DNA from: a virus
Lineage: Duplodnaviria > Caudoviricetes
Reading direction: 5' to 3' (one strand)
DNA: 51,544 nt
Virus record (IMG/VR): IMGVR_UViG_3300045996_001835
Coordinates: 1-51,544 of that record
Shown one piece after another: positions 4,503-51,544 of the stretch (positions are counted from its first letter, which is position 1; each line of letters begins with the position of its first letter). The position numbers and the translations under genes are program-made. The notes beneath the pieces were generated by a model that saw nothing but the letters and a program-made list of their open reading frames with translations, did not search any database and was not told the DNA's origin.

Positions 4503-4967
4503 ATGGAGAAGATTATGAAAAATACGAAGATTTACGTGGCGTCTTCATGGCGCAATGACTATCAACCGGACGTGGTGAATGTCCTTGTTGGTGAGGGGTT
4601 CGAAGTCTATGACTTCAAGAATCCGGCCCCAGGCGATAATGGTTTTCATTGGTCCGCCATCGACCCTAAATGGAAGGAATGGGATGCTCAAAAGTTTGTT
4701 GAATCCCTCCAGCATCCCATCGCACAAGATGGCTTCGGTAAAGACATGGCTGCTCTCATGGACTGTGATCTATGCGTCCTCGTTATGCCGTGCGGTAGGA
4801 GTGCGCATCTCGAAGCTGGTTATGCAGTCGGCGCTGGGAAGCCAACCATTATTCTTTTGCAAGACGGTGAGCCGGAGTTGATGTATCTCATGGCAGACAC
4901 CGCAACGACCATTGAACGTGTCGTCGAATGGTGCAACGAGCACGCAGAGATCATGGCACGCACCTAA
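4503..4967 (+). CDS. Nucleoside 2-deoxyribosyltransferase-like protein
   Basis: KIYVASSW...DMAALMDCDLCVLV...SAHLEAGYAVGAGKP NDT-fold motifs. Confidence 0.8.
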   Translation: MEKIMKNTKIYVASSWRNDYQPDVVNVLVGEGFEVYDFKNPAPGDNGFHWSAIDPKWKEWDAQKFVESLQHPIAQDGFGKDMAALMDCDLCVLVMPCGRSAHLEAGYAVGAGKPTIILLQDGEPELMYLMADTATTIERVVEWCNEHAEIMART

Positions 4968-5315
4968 CGCCCCACACTCGCATCTTAAGGAGGTGATAGC
5001 TTTGAAAGCCACCACGATGACAACCAGAAGGTAACAACCCCGCACAACGAAACACGCACTACAAATCGCAGACGATGCAGAGAGGCACCAACCATGAGGA
5101 AACGGAATAAGCGACGCGGTATTGATTTCACCGCGCATAGTTTGGAGAAAAAACTCAGATGCTAGATAGAGGAAATCTGTCAAGGCGTTATGGACTTCGG
5201 GAACTGGGAGGATGATAGCCTAATGGCTTTTGAATTTATTTCATTGACGGCAAGAAGATAGAACTGGTTGGTATGGGAGCAGGGGCGTGAAATTGGATGA
5301 GAGGGAGAGAAGGCG

Positions 5316-6281
5316 ATGGAAAGAAGAAGAGCGCACATAGTCAATTACTCGGGCGGTATCGGTTCTTACGTGGCCGCTAAACGCGTTAAGGAACGACACG
5401 GCGAAACAGATTTGATTTTGCTATTTACAGATACGATGACCGAGCACCCAGACCTGTATCGTTTCTTGGTCGAATCTGCGGCGAGGTTGTTTTGTGGTGG
5501 CACGAATCGCCACGATGCTCGCAGGCTGGTAGACCTCGCCAGACAGATACCCGAACTGTCACGCGAGACCGAAATCCTGCGCAAGCAGTTAATTCACAAG
5601 TTGCGTAAAGCGGCGACGAGGGTAATACCTGGCCTTGAGTGGCTCTGTGAGGGTCGAACGGTCTGGGAGCTTTTTAAAGATGAAAGATTTATCGGCAACA
5701 CGAAGGCAGACATCTGCTCCCGTGTGCTTAAGAGGGAAATGGCCGATGGCTACGTGAAGGCATTCCACACGCCTGAAACATGCGTGCGATACCTTGGCAT
5801 AGACATCTTCGAAGAGCATCGATATCTCAGAGCAAAAGAGTTGTTTCGCCCGTGGGTATTGGAGGCTCCGCTTTGTGACAAACCATACTACAGCAAAGAA
5901 GACATGAAGAGAATTGTTGAGGAGGATGAAATGCAGATACCTCAACTTTATATCGATGGCTTCGACCATAACAACTGTGGCGGATTTTGCAGCAAGGCGG
6001 GTCAAGGGCATTTTAAAAATTTGCTCCTAAAAAGGCCCGCTTATTTCGGATACAACGAAGACGAAGAGAATGACACGCGCGCCATTGTTGGCGACTATTC
6101 TGTTCTTCGCGACCGCACAGGCGGCGTCACAAAACCTCTAACATTGACGGCACTGCGCAAGAAAGTAGAGGAGAAAAAACCAATAGAAGAAAACGACTGG
6201 CGCGGTTGTGCGTGTTTCTTCGACACGTCCGACTCGCCCGACGCAGCCGACCATGAATTAGAGGCGGTGACATCCCCATGA
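5316..6281 (+). CDS. PP-loop (PAPS reductase-like) protein with Cys motifs
   Basis: SGGIGS PP-loop, FTDT, CSRVLK, HNNCGGFC, GCAC. Confidence 0.75.
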   Translation: MERRRAHIVNYSGGIGSYVAAKRVKERHGETDLILLFTDTMTEHPDLYRFLVESAARLFCGGTNRHDARRLVDLARQIPELSRETEILRKQLIHKLRKAATRVIPGLEWLCEGRTVWELFKDERFIGNTKADICSRVLKREMADGYVKAFHTPETCVRYLGIDIFEEHRYLRAKELFRPWVLEAPLCDKPYYSKEDMKRIVEEDEMQIPQLYIDGFDHNNCGGFCSKAGQGHFKNLLLKRPAYFGYNEDEENDTRAIVGDYSVLRDRTGGVTKPLTLTALRKKVEEKKPIEENDWRGCACFFDTSDSPDAADHELEAVTSP

Positions 6282-6763
6282 CCACCTCCACCATAGACGC
6301 GGTGCCGAGCGAAGTGAGAGAGGCGGCAGCCGGTCTGACAGCCTTCGCTGACTATTCGGAGCAATACGACGAGATGCAGTTGACCCGCGACTATGCTGAG
6401 TTTGCAAAAGTCAGTTGCTACGCCTACATGGACTGTCTTTACCCCGACTTACACCCCGATAGGTTCGAGTCTGTAATGCGACTCTGCACCACCATCCAAC
6501 AATGGTACGACCGCAAAACCTTAAATCTCTTCTGGCACGACAACACCCTCCTTTACGGCAACCCTGACGAACCGGACAAGGCGCGCGAGGTGGGAGCGAT
6601 TACGGACCATCAGGGGTATTACACGTGGACCGGCAAGCACATTCAAAATGGCGTTTGTCAGAACCACAACTCCTATGGGAAGTACTCCGACCGGGCGGCG
6701 GCTATGAAGCATTGCGAAGGGTTCGCGCGTAAGTCGTTGAATCTGCCTGAGGTCTCCCCATGA
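6278..6763 (+). CDS. Hypothetical protein
   Basis: Coupled ORF in the early operon. Confidence 0.65.
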   Translation: MTTSTIDAVPSEVREAAAGLTAFADYSEQYDEMQLTRDYAEFAKVSCYAYMDCLYPDLHPDRFESVMRLCTTIQQWYDRKTLNLFWHDNTLLYGNPDEPDKAREVGAITDHQGYYTWTGKHIQNGVCQNHNSYGKYSDRAAAMKHCEGFARKSLNLPEVSP

Positions 6764-7023
6764 CAGCCGCCAAACGTAACCGCAAGCGTGGCCGCGTCGA
6801 GTGCGACGACTGCGCGAGATCGGGCTACAAGAAAACCGGAAATCTTATGCCCGCCGGCTGGTCGAAGAGCGGTCCCTGGCTGAGGCGGCTACTATGCCCG
6901 GACTGTGCGGCGAACCATAAAGCATCAGTTGAACGCAGTGCTGCGCGCGCGAGAGAAGCGCAGGAATCGGAAGCCGTCGCCATGCGCGAGGAGCGGGAGT
7001 TGTATGGGGCGGAGGGGAGATAG
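6760..7023 (+). CDS. Small zinc-finger protein
   Basis: CDDC...CPDC. Confidence 0.6.
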   Translation: MTAAKRNRKRGRVECDDCARSGYKKTGNLMPAGWSKSGPWLRRLLCPDCAANHKASVERSAARAREAQESEAVAMREERELYGAEGR

Positions 7024-7024
7024 C

Positions 7025-7750
7025 GTGCTGACATTTATATCCCTGTTCGCAGGTATCGGCGGGATGGACTTAGGCTTAGAGCGTGCGGGGATGCGGTGCG
7101 TGGCACAGGTGGAGATAGACGACTATGCAAACAGAGTGCTTGAGAAGAACTGGCCAGATGTTCCTCGATATCGAGACGTGCGAGAAGTTGGAAAGCACAA
7201 CCTGCCAACCGCCGATATCATCTGTGGTGGCTTTCCATGCCAAGACCTTGCCTATTGCGGGCTTGGAGCTGGCCTCGATGGTGAGCGGTCTGGATTATGG
7301 CGCGAGTACCACCGTATCATTCGCGAGTTACGACCCAGATACGTCCTCGTGGAAAACGTCGCAGCTTTGCTTAACAGGGGAATTGATAGAGTTCTCCGAG
7401 ACCTGGCCACGTGCGGGTATGATGCGGAATGGAGAATGTTTCGAGCGTCCGACTTCGGACTGCCCCATCGCAGAGAACGGCTGTTTATTGTTGCCTACCC
7501 CGACGAAGTCGATGGGCAAGCGGGGGTGGGGATTGAGCAGAACCGGACGCGCACGATACTCCCCACAGATAATCCACGATGCGTTCCTGTTCGGATACAA
7601 GCCGCCCATCGCTTTATTGGAATGGATGATGGGGTTCCCGCCCGACTTTACGAAGGCAGAGCAGGCGGAATCGGAAACGCCGTAGCTGTACCAGTTGCTG
7701 AATTTATTGGCAACTGCATTTTGAAATACCACAAGGAAACAACCCCATGA
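7025..7750 (+). CDS. dcm: DNA cytosine-5 methyltransferase, catalytic (alpha) chain
   Basis: FAGIGG (motif I), GGFPCQ (IV), ENV (VI), HRRERLF (VIII), GNAV (X); GTG start at 7025 after GGAGGGGAG. Confidence 0.93.
   Translation: MLTFISLFAGIGGMDLGLERAGMRCVAQVEIDDYANRVLEKNWPDVPRYRDVREVGKHNLPTADIICGGFPCQDLAYCGLGAGLDGERSGLWREYHRIIRELRPRYVLVENVAALLNRGIDRVLRDLATCGYDAEWRMFRASDFGLPHRRERLFIVAYPDEVDGQAGVGIEQNRTRTILPTDNPRCVPVRIQAAHRFIGMDDGVPARLYEGRAGGIGNAVAVPVAEFIGNCILKYHKETTP
7125..7685 (+). CDS. Putative methyltransferase beta chain nested in an alternative frame
   Basis: Open frame with SSWKTSQ, ETWPRAGMMRNG, LLPTPT and the motif IX-like EWMMGFPPDFT that is missing from the alpha frame; start uncertain. 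Confidence 0.7.
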   Translation: MQTECLRRTGQMFLDIETCEKLESTTCQPPISSVVAFHAKTLPIAGLELASMVSGLDYGASTTVSFASYDPDTSSWKTSQLCLTGELIEFSETWPRAGMMRNGECFERPTSDCPIAENGCLLLPTPTKSMGKRGWGLSRTGRARYSPQIIHDAFLFGYKPPIALLEWMMGFPPDFTKAEQAESETP

Positions 7751-9931: not shown

Positions 9932-10510
9932 ATGTATGTAAAAGCGATTGAAACCGAATATGACGGGCACAGGTTCCGAAGCAGGTCAGAGGCGCGGTGG
10001 GCGGTATTCTTCAACGCCCTCGGGGTGCCTTATGAGTACGAGAAGGAGGGGTTTGATCTTGAAGGAGTAGGGCGGTATCTACCTGATTTCTGGTTACCAG
10101 AACAGGATTTCTGGATTGAGATCAAGGGCAGTGAGCCTACAAGCGACGAAGGAGAACGTGCAAGTGCGTTGGCACGCGCCACCGGGAAAAGGGTCTTTGT
10201 CTTTTTCGGGGATATTCCTCAGTCCACTAAAGATAGTTGGGGTGGGGAGGATAGCGCACATCTTTATTGCACATTTCAGATCGAAGGTGAGAATGAGGTT
10301 GGATGGGACAGTTACTATTGCTGGTGCGAGTGTCCCCGGTGCGAGAAAGTAGGTATTGAATTCTCAGGTAGGTTTGAGCGCCTTTGCGATTGTGTTAGTG
10401 GTGACAAGGGACTGTGTAATTCTTTACGCATCCAGGCAGCTTACAAAGCTGCACGTTCTGCCCGCTTTGAACATGGCGAGACGCCGCAAATACCGGCGGT
10501 GGTTAGATGA
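9932..10510 (+). CDS. PD-(D/E)XK nuclease-family protein
   Basis: FRSRSEARWAVFF...YLPDFWLP...IEIKG. Confidence 0.8.
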   Translation: MYVKAIETEYDGHRFRSRSEARWAVFFNALGVPYEYEKEGFDLEGVGRYLPDFWLPEQDFWIEIKGSEPTSDEGERASALARATGKRVFVFFGDIPQSTKDSWGGEDSAHLYCTFQIEGENEVGWDSYYCWCECPRCEKVGIEFSGRFERLCDCVSGDKGLCNSLRIQAAYKAARSARFEHGETPQIPAVVR

Positions 10511-11568
10511 GTTTCAGAATAACCAAGCAGGTCTGGAAGCATCCGCACCTGACTAACCCGACCGACAAATTAGTGCTACTCTACCTAGCCGACATCGCGC
10601 GAGACGACGGCCATTGCTACCCTAGCATCGCGACCATCGCCGAGAATAGCAGCATGACGGAGAACGCCACCAGCGCGATAATTCACCGACTCGCAAAGGG
10701 TGGATACCTCACGATTATAAGTGGTGGTGGCAGAGGCAAGCCGAACGAATATCTCTTGCATGTCGATCAGGGTAAGGCCATCGAGAAGGGTAAGGCTCAT
10801 TCACCTAAACCCCCATCCTCGCGTGGGGTTTCTGACCTAAACCCCCATCCTCAAACCCCCTTTGATAAACCCCCTTTACGGACGGTAAACCCCCATCCTC
10901 AAACCCCCTTTATGGACGTTCCCTATAAGGAGAACCATAAGTTAGATATTAATAACCCATTAGATATAACGCGTGCGCAGGCGCGCGGCGCGGGTGTTAC
11001 AGAGGATTTAGACCCCCATCGGCCGTTCGACTTGGATGGCGGCGAAGACAGCCGATACCAGACCCCTCACTACCTGACCTTGCTGGAGATATGCGACCTA
11101 GACGAGCGTGTCCTCGGTCATAGCATGAGGTTCAAAGCTACGGTTGCCTCCATCGCCGTAGACCTCGCCAAGATTTACACCGTCGAGCAGATGCGAAGAG
11201 CGAGGGCCGTGTGGCCCTACGACAACGCACCGACCCCGGCGCATTTTTCTAGAGAGATCAAACGACTGTTGAACCAGAAGGAGAAGGTTAGTGAGCGAGC
11301 ATCGCCAAGAAATCGAGAGGAACAACGAGACGCTACGAGCGCTGCACTCAAACGGCGCATCAACGGCGCGCTCAAACAGCACATGGGAACAGCCGGAGGA
11401 CAACCTGCCTCCCCTGACGAAGGCGGAATCGGCATGGCTGGTGATGGTGAACGACTTGCGCAATGCGTATCCAACATCCGATATCGCGAAAATCTCATTT
11501 TTGGAGATCGAGGATATTGCCCGGAGTTGGGCTCGGATTCTCGCGGCGGTTCCTATCGAACGCATTAG
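10507..11568 (+). CDS. Phage replication initiator (lambda O-like, N-terminal wHTH)
   Basis: KLVLLYLAD...CYPSIATIAE...IHRLAKGGYL...NEYLL; internal iterons. Confidence 0.85.
   Translation: MSFRITKQVWKHPHLTNPTDKLVLLYLADIARDDGHCYPSIATIAENSSMTENATSAIIHRLAKGGYLTIISGGGRGKPNEYLLHVDQGKAIEKGKAHSPKPPSSRGVSDLNPHPQTPFDKPPLRTVNPHPQTPFMDVPYKENHKLDINNPLDITRAQARGAGVTEDLDPHRPFDLDGGEDSRYQTPHYLTLLEICDLDERVLGHSMRFKATVASIAVDLAKIYTVEQMRRARAVWPYDNAPTPAHFSREIKRLLNQKEKVSERASPRNREEQRDATSAALKRRINGALKQHMGTAGGQPASPDEGGIGMAGDGERLAQCVSNIRYRENLIFGDRGYCPELGSDSRGGSYRTH
10806..10911 (+). repeat. Iterons of the putative lytic origin
   Basis: TAAACCCCCATCCTC at 10806, 10838, 10886; AAACCCCCTTT at 10853, 10867, 10901. Confidence 0.85.
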
Positions 11569-12200: not shown

Positions 12201-14684
12201 ATGAGCACAAACATAACCGACGTATCCCGGCGCATCGCCTGGAAGTGGGGACTGCCCGCCGCTGAAGTGCAAGAGCAATACGACAAAGACAACCGCTACT
12301 GCACTTCCTGCCGTCGCTGGGTAAACCGCCTGGAGATTGCAGTCTCGACTCTTCAGTGCCCGGACTGCGTAGGCAACAGCCGGTCCACGCGAACCGAGCA
12401 ACACGGTATCCGCCGAGCTGCACAGCGCGCCCGCGAACGCTACGAAGCGAAACGACAGACGCAAACCACGCCGTAAAGGGCTTTAAGGGGAAATATCATG
12501 TTTTGCCCAAATGACCTTAGGCCGTGTATTGATGACCTCTGCCACATGGGCGGCTGTCTTCGCTCAGGCACGTGCGAACCGATGGTATCCAGGTGCTTGG
12601 ATTGTGGAGAGCCTACCGAATCGGCCTATGCGACTCACTGCGACGATTGCTTACGCGACCACTATGCCAACGACGAAGAATAACGGGCCTAGAAGCGCCA
12701 CAGAGCGTTCCAAGGGTCCACGACTACCTAAAACAAGAGAACCTGCCCTCAGCGTCAAGATTTGGGGCCATAGCGACGAAAATAAACGACTAGACACCCC
12801 CGTTCTGCGGCCACAGAGTGAGTGTGGGGAGAGAAGGAGAGAGATTATGTGTGAATACATGGGATACGAATTTGGAGCGGGTAGCTACCCCGACTCAGTT
12901 TGCATTGACGGCTATTTGTGGGACGCCGATAGTGGCAGTGGTGATGGCCTGACTGTTGGCGGGGAAAAGCCCTGCCCGGAATGTAATCACGAGTCCTGGC
13001 TTCAATATGGGCTCGACAGTGTTGAAGAAGAGGGCGCTATCGCCGCCGCCCATAAGATGCCTCGCGAAAGTCCGTACTCAAACTCCGAGAAAAAATTGCG
13101 CTATGAAGCCGACCGGCCTACTTTAATCGCAGCCTGGCTAAAGGGTTATGACAGCGAAAAATCTAATCAACTTCTGGAGCAACAATGACACAACCAACCG
13201 AAAACCTGCCCCTGCTGCGACAGGTGGCAACAGCAGAAGGCTATACGATTATCTCCAATAACACGTCAACGCCCGAAGTTGTGAAGGCTTATAACGCCAG
13301 TGGTGGCAAATTACTACTGGAGTGCGAGCGGGACTTTTGTATTGTCGAATGGATAGATGCAGACCGGCAGCCCGTAATACTGCACTACTATTCTCCGCAC
13401 CTAGACCGCAATCATGTGGCTCGGCTGATGGAGAAGTGGCTGGCGACTCGAAAGCAGAAAGAGGCATTTATCAATGCCCTGATTAACGAGCTTTTGACGG
13501 CCGGGGATTTCGGCCCATTTGCAGCGGATGAGTTCGCCCTTGTATCGGCCCCACCCGAAACGTATCTCACGGCGCTCCTGGCTGTGGTCGGGGAAGGAGA
13601 GACATCGTGAAGCCAGTCATGCAAACGCAGTTCACATCGAAAGACCAATCGGTTCACGGCAACTGCTTCGCCGCTTGCGTGGCATCCCTGCTTGAATTGC
13701 CGCTTGAAGCGATGCCGTCATTTCTTAGCGAGGATTGGTGCAGTAATCTGTTCAGCCTTTTGAAGGAGCATGGTTATGATTTCGGCGGTTCGTTCTACCC
13801 AGAGGGTGCCGACTGGTGGCCGCGCTTGCAGGCACTCAGCCCCGGCGTTGACGGTTACTACATCGCTGGCGGGCCATCGCCTCGTGAATGGGTCAAACGT
13901 GGTCATGCGGTGATTTACAAAGACGGAGTGATGGTGCATGACCCTCACCCGAGTGGTGCAGGGATTTTGAGCGTGGGGCACGTGCTGATGATTGAAAAGG
14001 AAGGAGAGAACGATGGACGGTAAATGGTTACGTGGGGCGTTTCAGGGCGGTATCCGGCATTGCTTTAAAACAACGTCTGGAATTTCTCTGTGCGGTGGGT
14101 TTCAGGCCAATCCGGTTGTTGTTGGAGTTCTCGGCACAGACGACCCGCCGCTACCTGAATCGAATAACTGCCGCGAATGTTTAGCAGCGCGGGAAAAGAA
14201 GGAAGGTAAAGAATGAACGAAGAATTTGACCATGAAGGAACAGACGCTATTGTTTGTCCGCACTGCGGTCACGAACACCCGGACAGTTGGGAAGTATCCG
14301 GGCGCTTTGATGCCGGGCAACGTCGGTGTGGGCAGTGCAATGGCCTGTATCGGTGGGAGCGAGAAATCATAACCACCTACACGACCACTGCGCAGTTTAC
14401 GAGCGAGGAATTGGCAGCGCGGGAGCGGAAGGAGAATCATGTCGCAGGTTAAACAATGCCTTACGATCTCAGTGCCTATCGTAGATACGTTACTGAAAGG
14501 CGAACGGGTTGCTTTTGCCGAGGCGGTCAATGTCGCACTTAAAGAACACGGTGTCCCTGACGGCACGCCTGTTCAAGTCGATGTAATACCGCGCAAATAT
14601 GACTTTGAGGTGACGGCAACGTGGTCCCCGCAAGACGCTAATGCTCTGGCAGCGCGGGAGCGGAAGGAGAAAGAGAATGGATGA
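12201..14684 (+). other. Run of small coupled hypothetical genes (12201-12476, 12498-12683, 12847-13188, 13185-13610, 13607-14023, 14013-14216, 14213-14452, 14439-14684), many Cys-rich
   Basis: Overlapping start/stop junctions and RBSs; 13607-14023 has GNCFAAC...HAVI...HDP (papain-like triad pattern). Confidence 0.7.
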
Positions 14685-15063
14685 ATTGAAACCGTGTCCG
14701 TTCGCCAAGTGCGGCGGCAAAGCACAGAATGTTTACGACAGGGAATTCCAATGCTGGAACGTCGAGTGTCGAAAGTGCTGGCTTAAATCAATTGACTGCG
14801 AGACAGCCGAAGCGGCAGCGGCTTGGTGGAATGACCGCACAGAACCTGCGGCTTCTTCTCCAGCCATTGCCCCGGCGACAGAAGAGAAGCCTAAGACTCT
14901 CGAAGATGCGGGGTGGGTGCCTATCGAGGATGGTTTGCCGCCGGTCGGGCTGACAGTGCAAGCCATTGTGGAGGGGAAAACCCGTACTGCGCATCGCACT
15001 TACTTAGGGTGGACGACTTCGCCGCATCCAACGCACTGGAAAAGCCTATGGGCAGACGGTTAA
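14677..15063 (+). CDS. Lar-like (restriction alleviation) zinc-finger protein with DUF551-like C-terminus
   Basis: LKPCPF..CGG...VECRKC...AAAWWNDR; WVPIEDGLPP...PTHW. Confidence 0.75.
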   Translation: MDELKPCPFAKCGGKAQNVYDREFQCWNVECRKCWLKSIDCETAEAAAAWWNDRTEPAASSPAIAPATEEKPKTLEDAGWVPIEDGLPPVGLTVQAIVEGKTRTAHRTYLGWTTSPHPTHWKSLWADG

Positions 15064-19401: not shown

Positions 19402-19851
19402 ATGCCGCTCACTTTGATGCCTTGCAGCCTCATGGAATCCAACGCCTATGTGCGGGAAAACCACCGCAATCATGGCGAGGTGAGAGGGCAGAAGTTTTCG
19501 AATAGTGTGTATTTGGACGACAAGCTTGTTGGGGTTGCAATAGTAGGTCGTCCGGTGGCTAGAAATCGAGATGATGGAAGAACAGCGGAAATTTATCGAT
19601 GCTGCACCGATGGTACGAAAAACGCTTGCACCAAGCTTTACGGCGGATGTGCCCGAGCTGCGGAGGGGATGGGGTACACGAAGATCATAACCTACACCCT
19701 GATAACTGAAGATGGAGCCAGTCTCCGAGCTGCTGGATTTCGCTGCATTGGAATTAATAAAGGCGGCGAGTGGGATCGGCCATCGCGTAAAAGGAAGCTG
19801 GCAGAACAGCCTTGTCCTAAGAAGATTTGGCTCAGGGATTTACGACCATGA
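19402..19851 (+). CDS. XF1762-like protein (GNAT/Mom-like fold suspected)
   Basis: VGVAIVGRPVAR..DDG.TAEI.R.CTDGTKNAC..LYG...ITYTL..E.GASLRAAGF. Confidence 0.7.
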   Translation: MPLTLMPCSLMESNAYVRENHRNHGEVRGQKFSNSVYLDDKLVGVAIVGRPVARNRDDGRTAEIYRCCTDGTKNACTKLYGGCARAAEGMGYTKIITYTLITEDGASLRAAGFRCIGINKGGEWDRPSRKRKLAEQPCPKKIWLRDLRP

Positions 19852-43299: not shown

Positions 43300-44325
43300 T
43301 TAGGTGCTCTTTTTTCGAGTATTGGTATAGCCTCGTAACTGTTTCTGTTCGCGTGCTGCTTTGAGGGGCGCTGTCTTCGACGGCCTGGAGTTCTTGGCGT
43401 TAATGGCGCGATTTAAGATCATGAATTCATCCTTGACCTTGGTCTCCATAGCCTTGCGTGAGACCTTGCCCGCACCCTCTAGAATCGGCTTGTCATTGAA
43501 ATTAAAGAACTCTCGCAATTTTACCACCCAGTCCAGCATCCTCATTGGCTTCCCCTCTAGGCTACGCAGCTCAGCGAATGACAGAAATTGCTCTACTAGA
43601 AGTTCAAGCCTTTTCATTTCATCTTCATTTAAATAGTTTTTAGCGACACGGGCATCATCTAGGCTAATACGGTCGCCCTTCCATGAGGTCAGGCCCATGT
43701 ATGGTTTCGAAGCATCTGCGCGCTGAACGATAATCTCGGCTGCCGTGTGTCCGTGGGTGGCGTAGTGAAACTGATTCTGGATTACTGCAAAAAATTCGTG
43801 TGCCATTTCGGACTTGGCGTCGTAGTCGGTGCTGGTCGCGAATATGTCTGTGACTTTAAGATAGAATGACTTTTCGGAAGTTCGAATGCTTCGGATGCGC
43901 GCGAGAAGGTCATCGAAGCGCTTTCCCTCGCCCTCCATGAGTTTCTGCTCATTTAGAACGAATCCCTTGGTGAGGTATTCGCGTAACCTATTCGTTGCCC
44001 ACTGCCGAAATTTGGTGCCGATCTTTGAGTTAACCCTATAGCCAAGGGATATGATGAGGTCTAAGTTGTAGAATGTAACATTCCTCGTAACCTGTCTATC
44101 TCCCTCATTTCGAACTGTCCGGAAATTCCGGATAGTTGAATCTTTCTCTAATTCTCCCTCGTCGTATATATTGTTAATATGCTCACTGATGGTTCGCACA
44201 TCTCGCTGGAAAAGCTCGGCCATCTGGGCTTGGGACATCCACACAGTTTCGTCATATAGCGCGACCTGGACTTGCGGCAAGCCATCGACCCTACATAATT
44301 CTAGTTGACCTTTGCTTTCTGCCAT
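43300..44325 (-). CDS. rhuM: RhuM-family DNA-binding protein
   Basis: ETVWMSQAQMAELF, YNLDLIISLGYRVNS, FRQWAT..LREYL.KGF, GHTAAEII, AKNYL. Confidence 0.92.
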   Translation of the reverse strand: MAESKGQLELCRVDGLPQVQVALYDETVWMSQAQMAELFQRDVRTISEHINNIYDEGELEKDSTIRNFRTVRNEGDRQVTRNVTFYNLDLIISLGYRVNSKIGTKFRQWATNRLREYLTKGFVLNEQKLMEGEGKRFDDLLARIRSIRTSEKSFYLKVTDIFATSTDYDAKSEMAHEFFAVIQNQFHYATHGHTAAEIIVQRADASKPYMGLTSWKGDRISLDDARVAKNYLNEDEMKRLELLVEQFLSFAELRSLEGKPMRMLDWVVKLREFFNFNDKPILEGAGKVSRKAMETKVKDEFMILNRAINAKNSRPSKTAPLKAAREQKQLRGYTNTRKKST

Positions 44326-44408
44326 AACACACCCCTAATATTCCGAACCGTCTATAATCGGTTCGCTCGGTACAGACACCCCACCTCCCCCATCGTTGCG
44401 CCCCACAC

Positions 44409-44444
44409 AAAAAGAAGGCCCACAGCATATCGCCGTGAGCCTCC
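44409..44444 (-). terminator. Intrinsic terminator after the HTH gene
   Basis: GGAGGCTCACGGC-GATAT-GCTGTGGGCCTTC TTTTT on the minus strand. Confidence 0.75.
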
Positions 44445-44484
44445 AGAAGCGGAGATATTCGAGTTTGTCTCCGACTTGATTTTA

Positions 44485-44817
44485 CTAGATAAAAACTCCC
44501 GGCGGTGCGATATTGCGCCAGTATTCACGCTCTGAATCAATCCATGCCTTGATAGTCCTGCTCTGATGTGACTCCGGGATAAGTAGAGCGGCAGTTAGTA
44601 GGCTGGCGCGTGGGGTCGGTTTTACTGGCTGTGTCCCCGTGCGCGTGTAGGTTTCGACGGACGGCACACTCACACCCATTTCTGCCGCCATCTGCACCTT
44701 CGTAATACCCCGCGCTTCGATAATCTCCCACACGATGCCTGTGCCGGTGGCGCGACTGTCGCGGGTGCCAGGCGGGCGGCCCTGGGGGCGCTTGACAGTT
44801 TTATTGGATGACTTCAT
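44485..44817 (-). CDS. XRE-like HTH protein (Aca-like candidate)
   Basis: RGITKVQMAAEMGVSVPSVETY HTH; GRPPG AT-hook-like motif; start inferred at 44817. Confidence 0.7.
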   Translation of the reverse strand: MKSSNKTVKRPQGRPPGTRDSRATGTGIVWEIIEARGITKVQMAAEMGVSVPSVETYTRTGTQPVKPTPRASLLTAALLIPESHQSRTIKAWIDSEREYWRNIAPPGVFI

Positions 44818-44820
44818 AAT
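44792..44820 (+). promoter_or_regulatory. Sigma70-type promoter of the mini-array
   Basis: TTGACA(44792-44797)-17-CATAAT(44815-44820); predicted start falls at the first repeat. Confidence 0.8.
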
Positions 44821-44824
44821 AGTT

Positions 44825-45018
44825 GTGTCAATCGAACCAGTATGGAATTGAAACATAGGTGGAGGCATAACGTATGTTTCATAATTTTAGTCGCACCGCG
44901 CTCTGTGCAAGCAGGGCAGGCGGATTGAAACACTGCTAGGGACGTAACTTGTGTTTCAGGTATTTTAATCGCACCGCGCAGGATAGGTTATTCACCTGTC
45001 CTGCAAGCGGATATCATT
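44825..45018 (+). CRISPR. Atypical CRISPR mini-array: 3 repeats, 2 spacers (29 and 30 nt), repeats 2 and 3 with inserted hairpins
   Basis: R1 GTGTCAATCGAACCAGTATGGAATTGAAAC (44825-44854); R2 ATTTTAGTCGCACCGC[18 nt]AGGCGGATTGAAAC (44884-44931); R3 ATTTTAATCGCACCGC[27 nt]AAGCGGATATCATT (44962-45018). Confidence 0.75.
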
Positions 45019-45271
45019 CCCCTCTTACTAACCGATTTGCCTCTTCAAGGGTGCAAACCCGATAGTCGCCGTTCTCGTCATGAATCTTTAAATAGTGTTC
45101 GCCTTGAAATACGGCTGCCTTTTTGTCGCCTGCCGCCCACCCGTTGAACTCTGATTCATCGTCGCACTGAACTGTCTCCATAGGCGCTTCAGGTTCTCCC
45201 CCATCGGCGTCTACAAAAATAATAGTTCCGGACTCGTGCGTGTAGTAGTAAGGGTATCCAGTATGTAGCAT
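45014..45271 (-). CDS. Small acidic protein (anti-defence candidate)
   Basis: 85 aa, D/E-rich, AAGGAG RBS. Confidence 0.7.
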   Translation of the reverse strand: MLHTGYPYYYTHESGTIIFVDADGGEPEAPMETVQCDDESEFNGWAAGDKKAAVFQGEHYLKIHDENGDYRVCTLEEANRLVRGE

Positions 45272-45282
45272 CTCAGTCTCCT

Positions 45283-45942
45283 TTAATCAACAACGGTGAA
45301 CTCTCCGCTTAGAACCTTTGCATCAATTTGCGCCTTAATCGACAAGGCTTTCTCTGCGGTTAGGATGCTCTCCGCTCCGTCAACGATGCGAGCCCCAACT
45401 CCGTCCTTAAGCTTTAATTGAACACGGCGTCCGTCCTGGCTCTGCGCGGTAATATCAAACTCCTTTTCAAGGATTGCATACTGCTCCATCCATTCTGGAG
45501 TTGATTCCGGAGTGTCGAGCGGTTCAGCTTTGCCGATGGTCACCTTTGCGATCTGTTCGCACAACTCCTCCAGCGTTGTGACCTCGCTCGACAGAGTTTT
45601 CGTGCTGGTAACATTTTGAAAGAACGCGGCTAACTCGCTTTCGGACAGAGCGGAATTAAGAAAGGCGCGGAATTGGGCCACTTCGATCTTATGGAAGCTC
45701 AAGAACTTTTCGATGTAAAAGGCAAGAGATGCAAATGCTTCTGGTGCACCTTCGGCGGTCCATGCAGCAGGGATGTTAAAACCTTCGATTCCTAACCAAT
45801 CTTCTACATACCATTTCTTAGCGTCTGCGTCCCACCGGGCCCCCTTCGCCTTGACTGCATCCTTTTTCTCGAAAGGCACATTCAAATAACAACGCTCTCC
45901 GAGGTTCTTACTTGCGACTTCAAATAATTCTTTGCTGTTCAT
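45283..45942 (-). CDS. DUF5710-like domain protein
   Basis: YLNVPFEKKDAVKAKGARWDADAKKWYV. Confidence 0.7.
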   Translation of the reverse strand: MNSKELFEVASKNLGERCYLNVPFEKKDAVKAKGARWDADAKKWYVEDWLGIEGFNIPAAWTAEGAPEAFASLAFYIEKFLSFHKIEVAQFRAFLNSALSESELAAFFQNVTSTKTLSSEVTTLEELCEQIAKVTIGKAEPLDTPESTPEWMEQYAILEKEFDITAQSQDGRRVQLKLKDGVGARIVDGAESILTAEKALSIKAQIDAKVLSGEFTVVD

Positions 45943-45956
45943 TTCGACTCCCTAAA

Positions 45957-46045
45957 TGCTTATACCTACAGTATACCCAAACTTACTTAGGGTTAAACAC
46001 TATTTAGAGAAATAAGTAGATTATTTTTTCGCCCTCATTTTTCCA
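45957..46045 (-). promoter_or_regulatory. Duplicated promoter/operator, copy 1
   Basis: -10 TATACT (45970-45975); core TATACCCAAACTTACTTAGGGTTAAACA is 27/28 identical to 46738-46765. Confidence 0.8.
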
Positions 46046-46089
46046 GATCGCGCATCATTAAAATCATGCGGCGAATACAGGCCGCTCTG

Positions 46090-46155
46090 GCTTCATTGTC
46101 GTTATTACGCATAATTCCATTGCCCGCAAACGTCGCAGGCTGGTTCGATTAAATA
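46090..46155 (-). repeat. Solitary CRISPR-repeat-like unit with two inserts
   Basis: Minus strand TATTTAATCGAACCA[GCCTGCGACGTTTGCGGGC]AATGGAATT[ATGCGTAATAACGACAAT]GAAGC. Confidence 0.65.
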
Positions 46156-46370
46156 CGGTTCATAGCTTCTGTAACTTCGGTCCAGAACGCATCAAATTCG
46201 CTCTGCGGCACCTCGTCATGGTAGGCGCGAATACCCTCATAAACTTCCGTTTCGATTTCACCGCGCTCCAAGGCGTCGGCAGGTTCGCACTTGTCTACCT
46301 CTGATTTGTAGGCGCGTGCAGCGGCTTCTGCGTTGTCATACTCGTAACCTGCAATAACTACTGTGTTCAT
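46149..46370 (-). CDS. 73-aa acidic protein flanked by repeat units (Acr candidate)
   Basis: GGAGAA RBS before ATG 46370; stop codon lies inside the downstream repeat. Confidence 0.7.
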   Translation of the reverse strand: MNTVVIAGYEYDNAEAAARAYKSEVDKCEPADALERGEIETEVYEGIRAYHDEVPQSEFDAFWTEVTEAMNRI

Positions 46371-46391
46371 TGTATTCTCCGAAAAACTGTT

Positions 46392-46433
46392 ATTTCGCCC
46401 TTTCGGGCAATTCCACATTGGTTCGATTAAAGG
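46392..46433 (-). repeat. Solitary CRISPR-repeat-like unit with a GNRA hairpin in the handle
   Basis: Minus strand CCTTTAATCGAACCAATGTGGAATT[GCCCGAAAGGGC]GAAAT, 30 nt without the insert. Confidence 0.8.
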
Positions 46434-46440
46434 TCCGAGG

Positions 46441-46680
46441 CTAGATGGCGTATGTCACACGGATGGTGTCGCCGTTGGTGTGGCGCATTTCTACACCCTC
46501 TGCTTCAGCCGCGATGGAGGCGCGCTCTTCGAGTTCACGCACAGCGTCGTCGTGGGACTCGAACTCTTCTTCGACATAATCTGTGCTCTGTAGATTGATG
46601 CCGTCGTAGCTCTGAATAGCGATGTAGAAGTTGCCGTCTTCGCGCTGTCCGATCTGATAAACATCGTGGGTCTTAGTCAT
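46441..46680 (-). CDS. 79-aa acidic protein (Acr candidate)
   Basis: GGGAGA RBS; first gene after promoter copy 2. Confidence 0.7.
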   Translation of the reverse strand: MTKTHDVYQIGQREDGNFYIAIQSYDGINLQSTDYVEEEFESHDDAVRELEERASIAAEAEGVEMRHTNGDTIRVTYAI

Positions 46681-46722
46681 TACAGTCTCCCTGTGCTGCG
46701 CTTCGGATTAACGTCTCTGCGC

Positions 46723-46811
46723 TGCTTATATATCTATTATACCCAAACTAACTTAGGGTTAAACATAAATCAGAGAAATAAATGAAATATTTTTTCGCTC
46801 CCATTATTCCA
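46723..46811 (-). promoter_or_regulatory. Duplicated promoter/operator, copy 2
   Basis: -10 TATAAT (46736-46741); imperfect dyad ACCCAAA-N5-TTAGGGT; AT-rich upstream element shared with copy 1. Confidence 0.8.
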
Positions 46812-46900
46812 AGAACCATGCCACGTCCCATTCCTGACTAAAAACCCCTCTCTTGGGGTACACTTATAGTAATAATCGTTTTAGTCATTAGGAGCCATTT

Positions 46901-47857
46901 ATGGGCGATGCAGTAGCGCCAATTCGCGGGCCACAAGGCATTCAGGGGATTCAGGGCATCCAGGGAATTCAAGGCCCAGCCGGACCTGCTGGAGCCAATG
47001 GCACCAATGGCACGAACGGGGCCGATGCTTTCCAACCTGCATCCGAAGACTTCATCGCATCCGGCACGTATAACATCCCCTCCGGTGCCAAGTACCTCGA
47101 TGTTGACGCAACCGGTGGCGGTGGTGGTGGCGGTGGCGGCAGACGCGGCGCAGCGGCTACAGACCGCACGGGCGGTGCTTCAGGCGCAGGCGGTGGAAGG
47201 ACGCGGCGGCGTATCCTTGTCGCAGACCTGGGCGGCGCAACGTCCCTGACAGTTACGATCGGTGCAGGCGGCACAGCAGGGGCGGCGGCAAGCGGGGATA
47301 CAGCCAATGGCGGTAATGGCGGTACGGGTGGCACCACAATCGTTGCCAACGGAGCCACTAACCTGGTGCGTGCGGGTGGCGGTGGCGGTGGCACCGGCGG
47401 CGTGCAGGGCACAACCACGGCAGGCGGTGGCGCGTCGCTGGGCGAGTTCTCAGGGGCTCTAGGAACTGCTGCGACTAACGGTGTGGGCGGCAACTCCAAC
47501 AACGCGAGTATGGCGGCAGGTGGCGGCGGGCCAGGTGGCGGGATACCGGCAGCGAATACCTTTAGTGTCGGTAAAGATGGCGGTGTCGGGGCGCGCGAGT
47601 ATGGTGGGACTGCTACAACTGTAGGTGTGGGTGGCACGACAGCAGGCACAGCAGGCACAGCAGCACCGACGCCCGACACTGACCGTCCCGGCAATGGTGG
47701 AGGCGGAGGTGCAAGCAATCCAAGCGGCGCGGCGGGAGCTGGCGGCAATGGTGCTCGTGGTGGCGGAGGTGGCGGTGGCGGTGCTGCTGTCAATGGCTCT
47801 GCTTCGGGTGCCGGCGGTGCGGGTGGCGCAGGCTACGTGCGTATCTATGCGTCCTAA
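46901..47857 (+). CDS. Glycine-rich tail-fibre-like protein with short collagen repeat
   Basis: GPQ(GIQ)4GPAGPA then polyglycine-rich domain ending GYVRIY. Confidence 0.8.
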   Translation: MGDAVAPIRGPQGIQGIQGIQGIQGPAGPAGANGTNGTNGADAFQPASEDFIASGTYNIPSGAKYLDVDATGGGGGGGGGRRGAAATDRTGGASGAGGGRTRRRILVADLGGATSLTVTIGAGGTAGAAASGDTANGGNGGTGGTTIVANGATNLVRAGGGGGGTGGVQGTTTAGGGASLGEFSGALGTAATNGVGGNSNNASMAAGGGGPGGGIPAANTFSVGKDGGVGAREYGGTATTVGVGGTTAGTAGTAAPTPDTDRPGNGGGGGASNPSGAAGAGGNGARGGGGGGGGAAVNGSASGAGGAGGAGYVRIYAS

Positions 47858-51378: not shown

Positions 51379-51544
51379 GTACTTATAACAAATTTAACAA
51401 ATCGTACCAACTCAACTGTTCGGAATTTCCGAATAGTCGCCCTACCCCACCCGCTCCCCTGCCCATTCAAGCACAACAAAATACCTTTCCTGTGCATAAC
51501 TCCAAGGATTATGTGCATAAGTGTGTCTGATTTCACTGACGCTG
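51379..51544. repeat. Terminal direct repeat, right copy
   Basis: Matches 1-166. Confidence 0.95.

Follow-up and report, generated by a model that had tools for sequence, protein, structure and literature searches.

Interrupted CRISPR-repeat mimics bracketing a small gene in a phage operon: a candidate RNA anti-CRISPR locus directed at type I-B systems

By imitating CRISPR repeats, Racr RNAs bind Cas6f and Cas7f, which yields dead-end complexes (Camara-Wilpert et al. 2023, PMC10651486). RNA anti-CRISPRs were described only in 2023 and have been sought as intact, solitary, intergenic repeats; the SRUFinder rule (PMC10651486) demands a coverage of at least 90% and takes a repeat as solitary when no other repeat-like sequence lies within 100 bp. 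In a single bicistronic RNA, acrIC5 is followed after 11 nt by RacrIC1, and racr candidates are found grouped with acr genes (PMC10651486). The acrIC5-racrIC1 pair is a published precedent for a mimic placed directly behind a small phage gene, the mimic being an RNA anti-CRISPR decoy. In type I-B systems, crRNAs carry a 5′ 8-nt AUUGAAAC tag and a single repeat is enough for cutting by Cas6b (PMC3479195), and internal changes or deletions in the 5′ handle of Haloferax I-B crRNAs abolish their function (PMC4326828). Here we describe a phage locus in which two interrupted repeat mimics bracket a whole gene and compare it with these systems.

The window, that is, the whole stretch of 51,544 nt that was analysed, is an entire IMG/VR virus record with a CheckV completeness of 91. 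Comparison with PHROGs and Pfam identified a terminase, major head and tail proteins, Erf, RusA, two Rep-O-like proteins and ParA/ParB. A family search found no Cas6 in the phage, and comparison of 73 ORFs with PHROGs, and of 16 among these with Pfam as well, gave no match to a cas family. The stretch is present in only two public runs, both labelled soil metagenome, one of which may be the source sample. These two DNA runs yielded nothing but contigs from the source-like soil metagenome and one piece of 151 nt. Several genes are of anti-restriction type (methyltransferase, Mom-like, Lar-like and nucleoside deoxyribosyltransferase). Counter-defence-type genes outside the present locus lie at 4503-7750, 14641-15063, 19402-19851 and 43300-44325 and include, besides these four types, PAPS-reductase-like and RhuM-family genes. 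Direct terminal repeats of 166 nt, 98% identical, are found at 1-166 and 51379-51544; the IMG/VR class of the record is linear without end repeats.

The repeat that the phage copies is a genuine CRISPR repeat. The real 30-nt repeat reads CTTTTAATCGAACCA-NNN-TGGAATTGAAAC, with variants such as CCTTTAATCG..., and ATCGAACCANNNTGGAATTGAAAC was found in at least 120 genome stretches, many of which are arrays with a 66-nt period and spacers about 36 nt long. Among the matches listed, the arrays belong to Ca. Poribacteria, Blastocatellia/Pyrinomonadaceae, Chthonomonadales and other Armatimonadota, and Bacteroidota. A type I-B cas neighbourhood was assigned from the loci whose neighbours were inspected, namely three Poribacteria loci in which cas3-cas4-cas1 precede the array and share its strand, L081 also having cas5 upstream; this is the I-B order, and the crRNA sense therefore ends in ATTGAAAC. 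A solitary copy of the repeat in another locus (L060, 71-94) stands beside a WYL regulator, with Csc2 of type I-D 6 kb on (6198-7184), indicating that the repeat family is not restricted to type I-B. A C/G variant, TAATCGCACC...GGGATTGAAAC, is the array repeat in a Chloroflexota MAG and in a Chthonomonadales MAG; in this variant (L281-L291 and L295) the A-to-C and A-to-G changes go together, which suggests an extra base pair in the repeat stem. Two of 401 sampled Acidobacteriota genomes contain AATCGAACCA...TGGAATT, a pattern that also admitted intact repeats. The single match to this pattern in G657 falls within a 657-aa ORF of the opposite strand and was discarded as an apparent chance match. 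In a Ca. Poribacteria chromosome (L015, about 4550-4600), a solitary canonical repeat followed by AAAAGGAGG and ATG lies directly upstream of a DndC/DndD-like operon and might act as a repeat-linked regulator of this other defence system.

Five mimics of this repeat, A and B on the minus strand and R1, R2 and R3 on the plus strand, lie within 1.6 kb of the 51.5-kb window. With up to two mismatches, TTTAATCGAACCA has four matches in 51.5 kb, all within 44827-46431, compared to a mean of 1.0 in shuffled controls, none of 100 of which reached four. The mimics are therefore not chance matches, and A and B are a real feature of the locus. Mimic A (46392..46433, minus strand) consists of 26 contiguous repeat nt (46433-46408; CCTTTAATCGAACCAATGTGGAATTG, that is, CCTTTAATCGAACCAATGTGGAATT-G), the hairpin GCCCGAAAGGGC (46408-46397, sharing one G with the repeat part) and GAAAT (46396-46392). 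The 12-nt GCCC-GAAA-GGGC hairpin is of the GNRA type and sits exactly at ATT^GAAA; four of the five remaining handle nt are kept, and the canonical Cas6 cut site would fall between 46412 and 46411. Mimic B (46101..46156, minus strand) starts at about 46156 and consists of (T)ATTTAATCGAACCA (46154-46141), a 21-nt loop hairpin (46140-46120), TGGAATT (46119-46113) and a replaced handle, ATGCGTAATAAC (46112-46101), with the canonical cut site between 46116 and 46115. The earlier note on this DNA had seen a handle insert at the same point in both repeats. This holds for A, and B does depart from the repeat after GGAATT, but what follows in B is only GTAAT/AATAAC with no clear GAAAC, so that an 'insert' in the handle of B is an interpretation; the larger change in B is its loop hairpin, which the note had not singled out. 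What A, B and R1 have in common is the repeat on its Cas6 side, as far as GGAATT; the handle is broken in A and B.

The enclosed gene, ORF73 (46149..46370, minus strand, from the ORF list), occupies the spacer position between A and B. Its TAA stop (46151-46149) lies inside the TTTAATCG of B. A and B are 278 nt apart, the stretch from the 26-nt core of A to where B starts being 251 nt long and encoding a protein, and ORF73 is flanked by direct 13-nt identities. The sequence and the ORF list confirm the coordinates and the order first noted, namely ORF79, repeat A, ribosome-binding site, ORF73 and repeat B with the ORF73 stop; together with the array matches they also bear out the claim that sense-oriented copies of a genuine Cas6-type repeat of the AUUGAAAC tag class bracket a real gene.

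All other features of this unit also lie on the minus strand. Upstream of ORF79 is P1 (46723..46811), a promoter-like 89-nt repeat (TTTAAC-16-TATAAT) that is 81% identical to a second copy, P2 (45957..46045), upstream of ORF219. The -35 and -10 elements of P1 were assigned by reading the sequence, and the promoter scan did not list P1. The window contains the 27-nt core of P1 and P2 twice, none of 100 shuffles contains it, and a search with this core found no relative locus. ORF79 (46441..46680) encodes a small acidic protein of 79 aa and pI 4.3, and its TAG stop (46443-46441) is separated from repeat A by 7 nt. The ribosome-binding site of ORF73, GGAGA (46376..46380), was read from the sequence, and the encoded protein has 73 aa and a pI of 4.2. 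A weak terminator-like hairpin (46068..46085; 5-bp stem, then ATGATTTTAA) follows mimic B. Further along are ORF219 (45283..45942), which has an N-terminal DUF5710 domain, ORF85 (45014..45271), which encodes a small acidic protein of pI 4.45 with no family, and a gene for a basic HTH regulator of pI 10.4 (44485..44817; phrog_4779, E 2e-5), Aca-like by position and followed by a strong terminator (44444-44414).

Single-sequence AF2 models of ORF79 and ORF73 reached pLDDT values of 87.7 and 89.9, respectively. ORF79 has no Pfam or PHROG family, no PDB sequence match and no Foldseek match below E 0.1; its one weak relative is P0005 (41% identity, E 1e-4). ORF73 has no Pfam or PHROG family and no PDB, Foldseek or Atlas relative; one homologue, P0004, is 74% identical and likewise 73 aa long. 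Relatives of the two proteins were absent from the viral contigs, ORF73 gave no alignment in the metagenome contigs, and BLASTN of 44400-46900 returned nothing from phage or plasmid collections. PDB sequence, fold, Pfam and PHROG comparison revealed no homology of either protein to a validated Acr. Both are small acidic proteins encoded in an accessory operon with an Aca-like HTH gene, a criterion of context only, and we regard ORF79, ORF73 and ORF85 as candidate protein inhibitors (Acr).

Like Racr and SRU loci, the locus has, on the minus strand, a sense mimic directly behind a small gene within one transcription unit, in an accessory locus with small genes. It also shares with them the similarity to array repeats (26 contiguous nt in A, 14+7 nt in B and 25 of 30 in R1) and the location on a mobile element without cas genes, here one with terminase, capsid and tail genes. 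It differs in that two mimics bracket a whole gene and in that the match is interrupted, by the handle hairpin in A and by the loop hairpin and replaced handle in B. Compared to acrIC5-racrIC1, the putative target type, as judged from the repeat sequence, is I-B. The mimics fall outside the SRUFinder rule as given in PMC10651486, since A is interrupted after 26 of 30 nt, B is split by 21 nt and R2 lies 30 nt from R1; its coverage rule would class A and B as partial at best. The locus shares the repeat sequence family and the repeat-insert-repeat orientation logic with a bona fide type I-B array. In contrast to such an array, a 222-nt gene that codes for a protein stands, together with its ribosome-binding site, in place of the 'spacer', the repeats are broken, and cas genes and a leader are lacking; regular identical repeats with spacer-sized inserts were not found, as A and B differ from each other and enclose a 251-nt insert that encodes a protein.

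On balance, we think it probable, though by no means assured, that this is an anti-CRISPR locus whose mRNA carries repeat mimics as Racr-like decoys of host Cas6, beside small acidic candidate Acr proteins. A and B are read as decoys because the Cas6 side is kept, the handle is lost and acrIC5-racrIC1 (PMC10651486) provides a precedent. The stretch would be the distal half of a phage anti-CRISPR operon directed against a type I-B system (Cas6, 8-nt AUUGAAAC tag), with P1 driving ORF79, mimic A, ORF73 and mimic B. Host Cas6 would bind each mimic, which retains the 13-15 nt at the 5′ end, the CCA/UGG base of the stem and the cut site, and would probably cut it; Cas6, and perhaps Cas7, would be diverted from real pre-crRNA, as in Racr RNAs. 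The handle would be deliberately spoiled, the RNA starting after the cut with A-UUG locked in a hairpin, which should keep Cas5 and Cas7 from assembling on the mRNA, leave the following ribosome-binding site free and protect the 5′ end. The plus-strand unit R1-S1-R2-S2-R3, with its own promoter, may be a second RNA arm, either a Racr or a Cracr-like mini-array. Most likely, the locus is a new structural variant of RNA anti-CRISPR in an acr-type operon. Its new elements are the handle-sequestering hairpin and the gene in spacer position, and the supplementary tables on Racr and Cracr may already list I-B candidates of this repeat family.

Judging from this locus, interrupted mimics may also be carried by phages within coding operons. 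The recurring handle-hiding hairpin (see below) points to a design rule in which the Cas6 side is kept and the Cascade side is spoiled, and to a blind spot of current search tools. Furthermore, the locus puts forward three small acidic proteins as candidate inhibitors of type I-B, for which, to our knowledge, few inhibitors are known, and it offers a testable construct for whether Cas6 can process phage mRNAs.

The predicted folds bear on the state of the handle after cutting. The cut product of A is predicted to begin with A-UUG inside the GNRA hairpin, with one unpaired 5′ base, in agreement with the earlier proposal that a cut at the canonical site would yield an RNA starting with a hairpin. 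That this hairpin would block loading of Cascade, where the note had named Cas5, is a fair expectation by analogy, since internal handle changes abolish crRNA function in Haloferax I-B (PMC4326828). The pairing probability of handle nt 2-4, computed in the first 40 nt after the canonical cut, was 0.69 for A, 0.40 for B, 0.61 for R1, 0.83 for R2 and 0.90 for an element of the L210 type from other phages (see below). The mean of 1000 natural handle-plus-spacer 5′ ends, sampled from 2957 spacers, was 0.24, with 15.7% reaching 0.5 and 3.9% reaching 0.8. This contrast is suggestive rather than decisive, as R1 and R2 are duplicates and B (0.40) falls within the natural range. The hairpin of A, which lies 3-4 nt from the scissile bond, might also prevent cutting.

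A more far-reaching form of the decoy reading, which we hold to be doubtful, is that handle-blocked mimics are a distinct class of phage RNA 'punctuation': Cas6 would cut the operon into stable, hairpin-capped monocistronic mRNAs, which would titrate Cas6, exclude Cascade and tie the output of the enclosed gene to active CRISPR. If this were true, the convergence with the elements of the unrelated phage group L210, L252 and L275 would make it a strategy of general use that screens for intact solitary repeats have overlooked. It is unlikely, in our estimate, that the locus is instead a sensor, in which host Cas6 cuts A and B and frees a stable ORF73 mRNA with a 5′ hairpin, ORF73 being made well only when Cas6 is present. 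The layout is the same as for a decoy, the cut site is kept, the 5′-terminal hairpin leaves one unpaired base, and the ribosome-binding site lies 16 nt past the last paired base of the hairpin (46394). The canonical repeat and ribosome-binding site before the Dnd-like operon of L015 hint that repeats precede genes in hosts too. In none of the predicted structures, however, does translation hinge on cutting: the folded 140-nt precursor shows no excess of structure over shuffles (z -0.37), the state of the ribosome-binding site is similar before and after the cut, and no clear unmasking was seen in the predicted folds. The earlier suggestion that ORF73 expression depends on Cas6 therefore drew no support of its own. 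In addition, with a GGAGA of its own ORF73 could be translated on the polycistronic RNA, and the published acrIC5-racrIC1 precedent (PMC10651486) acts as a decoy.

By its predicted fold, a handle-swallowing hairpin after ATT, placed between two small genes, recurs in a second, unrelated viral lineage. The gapped pattern TAATCGAACCA-N3-33-GGAATTGS, which demands a non-A after ATTG, matched 14 viral stretches, 11 of which look unrelated by inspection. The element found in L210, L252 and L275 consists of TTTTAATCGAACCA, two loop hairpins, GGGAATTG, a hairpin and AAA; it begins 2-5 nt past a small ORF's stop codon, and 25-27 nt separate its end from the following ATG. The three are related AT-rich phages with a downstream 137-aa gene in common, and the ORFs flanking the element differ in all three. 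The consensus fold has 15 pairs, with two compensatory double changes and one G-C to G-U change, and the UU of the handle pairs with the AA after the hairpin. Because the three belong to one lineage and were found with a pattern that demands the motif, they count as one independent case, not three. The element matches no Rfam family, and no spacers matching the three phages were found among those from the fetched arrays. Weak Rfam matches to ctRNA_pGA1, of 28-31 bits (gathering score 45), are present at the same relative place in all three (516-587 in L252, 12456-12527 in L275 and 932-1006 in L210). A looser pattern of 16 fixed bases, whose matches were ranked by eye and by a simple score, gave mostly chance matches and was set aside.

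Intact copies of the repeat are also present in viral contigs. ATCGAACCANNNTGGAATTG occurs in 23 viral stretches, in 13 of them as a single copy, and those single copies that do not clearly fall within long ORFs are 50-190 nt away from the ORF upstream, in an ordinary promoter-driven layout. Two AT-rich viral groups (L124, L137 and L140; L132, L141 and L144) have near-canonical solitary repeats with a GAAAT or GAAAG handle behind Bacteroidota-like promoters, and are ordinary Racr-type candidates.

We also judge it improbable that the mimics are relics of a captured mini-array, or linkers for swapping accessory genes, with no Cas interaction. The 13-nt direct identities that flank ORF73 and the 89-nt direct repeats P1 and P2 that flank the module would fit such an origin, as would the differing flanking genes around the constant element in L210, L252 and L275, which are as expected for a recombination joint. 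Decay, however, would not spare the Cas6 side (26 contiguous nt in A) while striking only the handle, nor would it give two unrelated lineages a stable hairpin at one and the same point of the handle, with compensatory changes, and a linker role does not explain why a CRISPR repeat was copied.

The plus-strand mimics lie 1.3 kb from A and B and form a unit of three pseudo-repeats and two short pseudo-spacers (44825-45018). A sigma-70-type promoter, TTGACA-17-CATAAT (44792..44820, plus strand; 11 of 12 positions), precedes the unit, with a predicted start at about the first base of R1. R1 (44825..44854) is a near-canonical 30-nt repeat, GTGTCAATCGAACCAGTATGGAATTGAAAC, with an intact handle, the 25 nt noted above being identical to array repeats. 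It is followed by the 29-nt pseudo-spacer S1 (44855..44883), whose 3′ end, GTTTCA, pairs with the handle TGAAAC. R2 (44884..44931) consists of ATTTTAGTCGCACC, a 24-nt loop hairpin and an intact GGATTGAAAC, and S2 (44932..44961) is a 30-nt pseudo-spacer with the same handle-pairing 3′ end as S1. R3 (44962..45018) consists of ATTTTAATCGCACC, a strong loop hairpin and the degenerate handle GGATATCATT. A 77-nt duplication links R1 with R2, and the 35-nt handle-plus-spacer units of S1 and S2 are 74% identical. R2 and R3 copy the C/G variant, TAATCGCACC...GGGATTGAAAC, of the same repeat family. A reading of R2 as a type I-C-like repeat was dropped, as TAATCGCACC...GGATTGAAAC is this C/G variant, which has its own arrays in Chloroflexota and Chthonomonadales MAGs. 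Nothing in the window reached an Rfam gathering score, R1 giving a weak match to CRISPR-DR2 (20 bits, E 2.4). The hairpins of R1 and R2 could instead be DNA operators for the HTH protein. A viral contig, L138 (about 5780-5850), has a canonical solitary repeat with a degenerate TCGCACC-type second repeat 30 nt on, and resembles R1-R2.

The layout of this unit resembles the viral Cracr arrays and prophage mini-arrays described in two preprints (10.1101/2024.10.29.618823; 10.1101/2023.03.03.530964), with degenerate repeats, shortened and similar pseudo-spacers, its own promoter and a position beside candidate Acr genes. The resemblance bears on a guide-like role, in which the A-B RNA or the S1 and S2 units would load into Cascade, in the manner of Cracr or CreA, and silence host cas or toxin promoters. 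The handles of R1 and R2 are intact, and the two pseudo-spacers, of 29-30 nt compared to roughly 36 nt in arrays, are similar to each other. Nevertheless, we regard this role as quite improbable. The Cracr layout does not apply to A and B, whose handles are broken and not usable, and the S1 and S2 pseudo-spacers are predicted to pair with their own handles. Searches of the window, 0.79 Mb of host loci, genome_contigs (with the handle plus 15 nt) and viral_contigs found no target of S1 or S2. In these same sequences, no host CreA/CreR counterpart was found, nor was a match of at least 9 PAM-proximal bases to a CreA/CreR spacer or to a cas or toxin promoter. That the mimics are attP-like copies for integration into a host CRISPR array is very improbable: such a role has been proposed for SRUs (mentioned in PMC10651486), but the 73 ORFs scanned against PHROGs (16 also against Pfam) include no integrase, ParA, ParB and the Rep-like genes suggest that the phage is maintained in the manner of a plasmid, an attachment site would not be expected in five copies on both strands with hairpin inserts, and no prophage of this type was seen inserted in an array.

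The host of the phage was sought through spacers and through the terminase. None of the 2957 spacers from the fetched arrays matched the window, the best partial matches being short (13-23 nt), and one spacer-like piece among them matches the CRISPR repeat itself. At E ≤ 1e-40, terminase matches were found in one of 301 genomes of an Acidobacteriota sample (G368, 60% identity) and in 17 of 301 genomes of an Armatimonadota sample (best 38%); among five picked genomes, the Poribacteria genome had no match. G368 has no array of this repeat, its four matches all having three mismatches, and no homologue of the HTH or tail-fibre gene of the phage. The latter gene (46901-47857), which is divergent from P1, encodes a glycine-rich tail-fibre-like protein with a collagen-like GIQ/GPA N-terminus. 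Elsewhere in the phage, a cluster of short direct repeats (TAAACCCCCATCCTC / CAAACCCCCTTT) at 10801-10911, in or beside a Rep-O-like gene (10507-11568), looks iteron-like and may mark a replication origin.
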